Part shown: positions 17,465 through 17,574 of the stretch, piece by piece
How positions within the stretch are numbered: position 1 is the first letter of the stretch
Layout: every line of letters begins with the position of its first letter
Assembly: GCF_054482595.1 (NCBI RefSeq)
Contig: NZ_CM137008.1
Reading direction: 5' to 3' (one strand)
Length of the DNA stretch: 64,000 nucleotides
The notes under the pieces: model-generated
Database searches by the model: none
Told to the model about the DNA's origin: nothing
The model's input: only the letters and a program-made list of their open reading frames with translations
Made by a program: the position numbers and the translations under genes

Positions 17465-17502
17465 AAAAAAAAGCCCGGACGACTGTTCGGGCTTGTCTTT
17501 TT
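17465..17502. terminator. Bidirectional intrinsic terminator shared by pfo (+) and MicC (-)
   Basis: aaaaaaaa-gcccggacgactgttcgggc-ttgtcttttt: hairpin flanked by A-run and T-run. Confidence 0.7.
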
Positions 17503-17574
17503 ATATGTTGGAAAATCAGTGGCAATGCAATGGCCCAACAGAAAATAAAATCTGTGACAATAAAGGCATATAAC
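17465..17574 (-). ncRNA. micC: MicC small RNA (OmpC-repressing)
   Basis: Reverse complement reads GTTATATGCCTTTATTGTCACAGATTTTATTTTCTGTTGGGCCATTGCATTGCC...GTCCGGGCTTTTTTT, matching recalled MicC; located between ompN and pfo as in K-12. Confidence 0.85.

Follow-up and report, generated by a model that had tools for sequence, protein, structure and literature searches.

Hairpins shared between convergent genes are common, and a further one carries little weight as a discovery. A bidirectional Rho-independent terminator between the convergent genes tonB and P14 was reportedly described by Postle and Good in 1985. Terminators of this type place a GC-rich palindrome between convergent units, flanked by an A tract at one end and a T-rich tract at the other. 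The MicC sRNA of Escherichia coli K-12 was reportedly described by Chen et al. in 2004, and the Hfq dependence of its repression is established knowledge. MicC is an Hfq-dependent RNA of ~109 nt that represses OmpC through pairing with the 5′ UTR (PMC5745476). A parallel has been drawn with the MicF/ompC pair (PMC5745476): in both cases an sRNA directed against one porin is encoded divergently from the gene of another porin, micF adjoining ompC in K-12; yet MicF belongs to a different RNA family and its target is ompF. A further class of shared element, the overlapping bidirectional terminators seen by SEnd-seq (Ju et al. 2019; e.g. ynaJ-uspE), also consists of a hairpin element between the members of a convergent pair (10.1101/2022.10.23.513370). 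Here, we analyzed a window of 64,000 nt (the whole stretch of DNA under study), in which a preliminary description had recognized MicC and a terminator shared with pfo. The micC/pfo site resembles the tonB/P14 type in all of the above features; however, it has an uninterrupted and conserved U tract on one side only, the other being interrupted, variable, and marginal. From the SEnd-seq class it differs in that those terminators are described as collision dependent, unlike intrinsic ones, whereas the MicC side is a textbook intrinsic terminator.

The micC locus and its neighbours

The locus comprises the following features, in window coordinates.

13912..17436, plus strand: pfo (ydbK/nifJ), pyruvate:ferredoxin/flavodoxin oxidoreductase of 1174 aa (ORF; TIGR02176, 1631.7 bits)
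17443..17459, plus strand: small AT-rich hairpin, UGGAUAA-GGA-UUAUCCA, in the pfo 3′ UTR (fold)
17465..17574, minus strand: micC (Rfam RF00121 and alignment with K-12 b4427)
17553..17574, minus strand: 5′ seed of MicC (nt 1-22), pairing with the ompC leader (RNAduplex and conservation)
17581..17586, minus strand: candidate −10 hexamer of micC, TATTCT (−12 to −7, read relative to the K-12 +1)
17802..18935, plus strand: ompN, porin of 377 aa (ORF; NCBIfam OmpC-subfamily porin)
18944..18967, plus strand: canonical intrinsic terminator of ompN, GCCCGCtgttatgGCGGGC (18944-18962) followed by TTTTT (terminator scan; d = +24.7)

The interval 17465-17574 is the known micC of E. coli in its known context. 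A whole-window Rfam scan returned a full-length match to RF00121 (MicC; model positions 1-123 of 123) at 17577-17457 on the minus strand, with 125.3 bits (E 2e-19), the gathering score of the family being 90. The covariance-model match proposed in the preliminary description as a check is thus present; MicC lies on the minus strand as it had stated, and the span that it gave equals the limits of the K-12 gene. By homology with K-12, the +1 is G17574 and the 3′ end falls in the U tract, after the 8th U at 17465, for a length of 110 nt in this strain. In K-12 MG1655, micC (b4427) is annotated at 1437121-1437231, between ompN and ydbK. When the two are aligned, the gene is identical except for 8 instead of 9 terminal T, and a single T/G SNP occurs 21 nt upstream of the +1, no functional consequence being noted for either difference. 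The ompN and ydbK neighbours, the ompC-pairing seed, and the terminator hairpin, including an A·C mismatch, are those of K-12. The window belongs to an E. coli chromosome: a 601-nt query around the site was found in 5412 of 5426 complete E. coli genomes, in many with 100% identity. All traits defining the MicC family that sequence analysis can address are present. MicC, its position, its target, and its terminator are already textbook E. coli biology, and nothing about them is new in kind.

Among the RefSeq (PGAP) genomes of non-K-12 E. coli that we examined, micC is left unannotated, the feature occurring only in the curated K-12 record. A divergent allele is found in E. coli WP5-S18-ESBL-07, with ~89% identity over 241 nt (window 17400-17640); it differs by a 5-nt deletion and a number of changes within the central stem-loop. 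Its 5′ seed and terminator stem are unchanged. About 600 complete E. coli genomes have alleles of this type.

The position of micC between pfo and ompN, and its divergence from ompN, had likewise been described correctly, as judged from the ORFs, NCBIfam, and RefSeq (labels nifJ and ompN on 100%-identical DNA), with pfo convergent. The stop codon of pfo (TAA, 17434-17436) precedes the hairpin by 36 nt, and the ATG of ompN lies 227 nt from the micC +1. This arrangement is tightly conserved in the relatives. Of these 30, 27 allowed the position of the pfo stop to be measured, and in all 27 it is 14-33 nt past the MicC U tract; most have 27-30 nt, a spacing that is strikingly constant from one genus to the next. 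A divergent ompN-like porin was matched in 24 of the 30, and in the 13 loci that allowed a full measurement its start is 223-228 nt upstream. The small hairpin at 17443-17459 sits between the pfo stop codon and the A-run. Considered as a conserved element, it did not hold up across genera: Escherichia keeps it with loop changes, and other genera have weak hairpins that are built differently. In Citrobacter, for instance, the pfo 3′ UTR hairpin (UUAAUAC...GUAUUAA) includes the stop codon.

On the promoter side, no good −35 hexamer was found beside the candidate −10 TATTCT of micC, and this −10 was not called by the consensus promoter scan. Between micC and ompN there is a single sigma-70-like promoter match, TCGATA-16-TATCAT (17634-17661, plus strand), which is directed toward ompN, the start site of which is known from prediction only (PMC5745476).

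The 5′ end of MicC displays the complementarity expected from its target. In RNAduplex, nt 1-21 pair with the K-12 ompC leader (−46 to −15 from the ATG) at −26.5 kcal/mol, against −13.4 ± 2.5 kcal/mol for shuffled seeds, none of 1000 of which reached the observed value. In 30 further species (of Escherichia, Citrobacter, Salmonella, Superficieibacter, and Pseudocitrobacter) the 21-nt seed is preserved without a single change, and the computed duplex agrees with the published mechanism of OmpC repression (PMC5745476). In this locus, MicC would be transcribed leftward from G17574, and its conserved 5′ 21-22 nt would pair with the ompC leader, leading to OmpC repression.

The shared hairpin and its two tails

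The element between pfo and micC consists of three parts.

17465..17472, minus strand: MicC U tract UUUUUUUU, 8 U, the terminator tail, seen as an A-run on the plus strand (sequence)
17473..17492, both strands: shared hairpin DNA with 8-bp arms and a 4-nt loop (sequence)
17493..17502, plus strand: pfo-sense tail UUGUCUUUUU, an interrupted U tract (UUGUC UUUUU) with 8 U in 10 (sequence)

On the plus strand the order is the A-run AAAAAAAA (17465-17472), GCCCGGAC GACT GTTCGGGC (17473-17492), and TTGTCTTTTT (17493-17502); on the minus strand the hairpin reads GCCCGAAC AGTC GTCCGGGC. The arms in the preliminary description (gcccggac...gtccgggc) occur on neither strand, since they combine the plus-strand left arm with the minus-strand right arm, and the repeat is in fact imperfect. 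As for the flanking runs, the A-run is as it had been described (8 A), and what had been taken for a T-run on the opposite side is interrupted. In the MicC-sense RNA, GCCCGAAC AGUC GUCCGGGC, the sixth pair is an A·C mismatch; in the pfo-sense RNA, GCCCGGAC GACU GUUCGGGC, it is G·U. Given that G·U replaces A·C, the pfo-sense hairpin is slightly more stable, with core-hairpin energies of −13.3 versus −9.3 kcal/mol. Taken with the flanking A/U pairs, the 38-nt element reaches −16.9 kcal/mol on the plus strand (shuffles −6.9 ± 2.6 kcal/mol; z −3.8) and −13.9 kcal/mol on the minus strand (shuffles −6.3 ± 2.3 kcal/mol; z −3.3). Transcripts of pfo also form the hairpin, because the pfo stop lies only 36 nt from its other side; thus, a stable GC-rich hairpin stands between the convergent units and is able to form in both transcripts. 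MicC has the 3′ module typical of Hfq-binding sRNAs, a Rho-independent terminator with a long U tail (hairpin plus 8 U), and its transcription would end there, at the hairpin 17473-17492 and the U tract; the latter, we infer, is also the Hfq-binding 3′ end. A simple terminator scanner called the plus strand site and missed the MicC-sense one, due to the A·C mismatch. The pfo-sense tail UUGUCUUUUU is at the same time the complement of MicC nt 73-82 (AAAAAGACAA), in a variable stretch of the MicC body immediately 5′ of the terminator.

Both directions were scored in the hairpin elements of 30 species loci and the window (31 sequences), using ViennaRNA energies and the d'Aubenton-Carafa T and d; the 1990 formula was combined with modern energies, so values near zero are soft. 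On the MicC side, 7-10 consecutive T follow the stem directly in 31 of 31 sequences, with T-scores of 4.7-6.0; d is +22.9 in the window (T 5.22) and, with a perfect stem, rises to between +40 and about +49. The pfo side is different. In the window its T-score is 3.24 and d = +6.3, a narrow pass by the classical score, and in the Escherichia loci of this set the tail is TTGTCTTTTT, with T of 3.24-3.34. Citrobacter and Salmonella have TTGTCAATTT (RNA UUGUCAAUUU), with T about 2.45 and d about −6, Superficieibacter and relatives TTGTCATAA... (T about 2.3), and Pseudocitrobacter TTAAATTTTA (T 2.31), so that outside Escherichia the pfo-sense T is 2.3-2.5 and d about −6. The convergent relatives therefore do not keep both U tracts: that of MicC is present in 31 of 31, and for pfo, genera other than Escherichia have at best TTGTCAATTT. 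As the pfo geometry is the same in relatives without a pfo-side U tract, this tract is not maintained alongside the convergent arrangement. The stem varies as well. Other genera possess the perfect palindrome GCCCGAAC/GTTCGGGC, the ancestral form, in which the A·C mismatch is absent. We also considered the direction of the stem-breaking transitions, with G·U retained on the pfo strand and A·C on that of MicC, as a sign of selection for the pfo hairpin, and found no signal (two Escherichia cases, E. coli and strain E69, in favour and one in Superficieibacter against).

Within E. coli, the MicC-side tail varies in length only, and the pfo-side tail occurs in three forms, which add up to the ~5412 genomes carrying the locus.

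TTGTCTTTTT (RNA UUGUCUUUUU), the form of the window and of K-12: about 3770 E. coli genomes, d +6.3
TTGTCTTCTT (RNA UUGUCUUCUU), the TTCTT form: about 1044 E. coli genomes, d 0.0
TTGTCTCATT (RNA UUGUCUCAUU), the TCATT form: about 598 E. coli genomes, d −4.9

T5 is absent from about 1640 of 5410 genomes (~30%), in which the pfo tail fails the classical score. Judging from these alleles, a pfo-side tail that drifts so freely is not what would be expected of a terminator tail under selection. The observations that are new here are small: an A·C mismatch in the MicC terminator stem that is specific to E. coli, the three pfo-side tail alleles, and the way in which the two sides contrast when genera are compared.

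The A·C/G·U stem is common to all sampled E. coli alleles with the exception of strain SC418, where the stem is the perfect ancestral one (GTTCGGGC). In this strain (NZ_LR778147.1, 1570-2290) an IS200/IS605-family element, with a tnpA annotated as frameshifted, lies right after the MicC U tract and separates micC from pfo. In a Citrobacter MAG, too, the MicC U tract is followed by this IS-end hairpin sequence, CCCCCAGCTAGGCTGGGGG, which suggests that the MicC terminator is repeatedly targeted by insertions of the IS200/IS605 type. In E. coli YZMc3-1 (NZ_CP123244.1) the pfo-micC-ompN interval is interrupted by IS1A, the query matching in two pieces that span 1378 bp.

The hairpin in pfo transcription

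The preliminary description held that the hairpin can terminate both pfo and micC transcripts. This stands as a capacity of the sequence; as a statement about two comparable terminators it does not, given that the sides are very unequal (d +22.9 vs. +6.3) and the pfo tail unconserved. We consider it reasonably probable that the hairpin is strong for MicC and, for pfo, a weak, leaky terminator and/or a hairpin that stabilizes the 3′ end, not a symmetric bidirectional terminator. The element would then be first the MicC terminator and 3′ module, and only secondarily serve pfo, as a leaky terminator or as a polymerase pause combined with an mRNA 3′-end stabilizer. A fraction of pfo transcription would continue antisense through micC into ompN and stop at 18944-18967, where any transcript reading through from pfo into ompN would likely end.

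Published expression data are in line with this model. A passage in PMC6176095, citing Fabrega et al. 2012, states that ydbK and ompN are "coexpressed in an operon" under SoxS. An ompN-lacZ fusion with the micC-ompN intergenic region only did not respond to paraquat (Dam et al., PMC5745476). Taken together, these reports imply that the effect of SoxS on ompN must come from the pfo promoter, in which case polymerase coming from pfo would have to read past the hairpin at an appreciable rate. An asymmetric terminator with a marginal and lineage-variable pfo side fits this reported SoxS-dependent co-expression of pfo and ompN. At the same time, ompN is described as quiescent (PMC5745476), while pfo is RpoS dependent and expressed in stationary phase (PMC4447067); hence the hairpin, or another intervening element, presumably attenuates much of pfo transcription. 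The terminator scan found no other plus strand terminator-like site between the hairpin and 18200, inside ompN. A Rho-dependent end of pfo was also considered and seems unlikely: with 67% A+T and a C content (16%) that does not exceed that of G (17%), the plus strand of 17437-17801 is a poor rut context. The curated Term-seq tables of Adams 2021 and the TERMITe supplements list no 3′ ends for micC, ydbK, or coordinates 14371xx/14372xx, and full-text searches of the literature for a micC bidirectional terminator or for ydbK-ompN returned nothing relevant.

Not all observations sit easily with a weak pfo side. With −13.3 kcal/mol, 8 U in 10, and an upstream A tract that can extend the stem, the element could terminate pfo fairly well, and the presence of TTGTCTTTTT in the related Escherichia sampled could reflect selection for pfo termination. 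A first alternative is a true and efficient bidirectional intrinsic terminator that ends both MicC and pfo and insulates micC and ompN from pfo transcription, which we think unlikely. It agrees with a GC-rich 8-bp hairpin 36 nt after the pfo stop, with A8 upstream and UUGUCUUUUU downstream, with a pfo-sense hairpin that is more stable than the MicC-sense one, with the scanner call and a d above zero on the plus strand, and with a T5 form common to most E. coli and the other Escherichia species sampled; an A-rich tract ahead of the hairpin is moreover regarded as a mark of such terminators (PMC12207403). However, the interruption of the pfo U tract adjoins the stem (UUGUC), and the tail is lost in ~30% of E. 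coli and in Citrobacter, Salmonella, Superficieibacter, and Pseudocitrobacter despite the same distance to pfo. Efficient insulation is also hard to reconcile with the ydbK-ompN co-expression in the passage cited above (PMC6176095) and with the paraquat insensitivity of the ompN upstream region (PMC5745476).

At the opposite extreme, the hairpin could have no terminator role for pfo at all, pfo and ompN forming an operon that ends at the ompN terminator and the hairpin being a by-product, at most a barrier to 3′ exonucleases. The operon statement in that passage (PMC6176095) can be read in this way; the pfo-sense tail merely complements the MicC body and drifts freely, d is negative in most taxa, and a canonical terminator follows ompN, the scan having found no other plus strand site from the hairpin up to 18200. 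Yet we give this reading little probability: an ompN that is quiescent (PMC5745476) while pfo is expressed under RpoS (PMC4447067) argues for substantial attenuation between the two genes, and a stable hairpin with 8 U in 10 should terminate to some degree.

A regulatory extension of the leak is also conceivable, although it seems to us rather improbable. The pfo-side hairpin would act as a tunable leaky attenuator, and SoxS/RpoS-driven read-through antisense to micC would express OmpN and lower MicC, through either a perfect anti-MicC RNA or transcriptional interference, so that oxidative stress would switch the OmpC/OmpN balance. The three tail alleles (T5, TTCTT, and TCATT) and the A·C/G·U stem change would in that case set lineage-specific leak rates. 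If true, oxidative-stress metabolism would be linked to porin choice and, speculatively, to antibiotic permeability.

Lastly, a collision-type bidirectional termination, in which pfo and micC polymerases meet at the hairpin pause site and the outcome depends on micC transcription instead of the U tract, would suit convergent genes with overlapping hairpin DNA and a class said to need no canonical U tracts (Wang et al. preprint, 10.1101/2022.10.23.513370), but is highly improbable here, since MicC is among the few sRNAs undetected in some growth conditions in one K-12 study, so that pfo/micC collisions should be rare, and the terminator on the MicC side is intrinsic and entirely ordinary.

Other features of the window

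Two further sRNAs were found above their Rfam gathering scores: FnrS (RF01796) at 22388-22505 on the minus strand, with 134.8 bits, and McaS/IsrA (RF00115) at 25883-25978 on the plus strand, with 117.4 bits. Downstream of ompN, an intact ORF of 311 aa (19686-20621, plus strand) corresponds to ttcA, beside uspF, as in strain XH990, where dbpA is directly next to it. At this site K-12 has the end of the Rac prophage and a ttcC pseudogene; given the intact ttcA beside uspF in the window, as opposed to the Rac end in K-12, the strain appears, from its sequence, to lack Rac at the ttcA junction.
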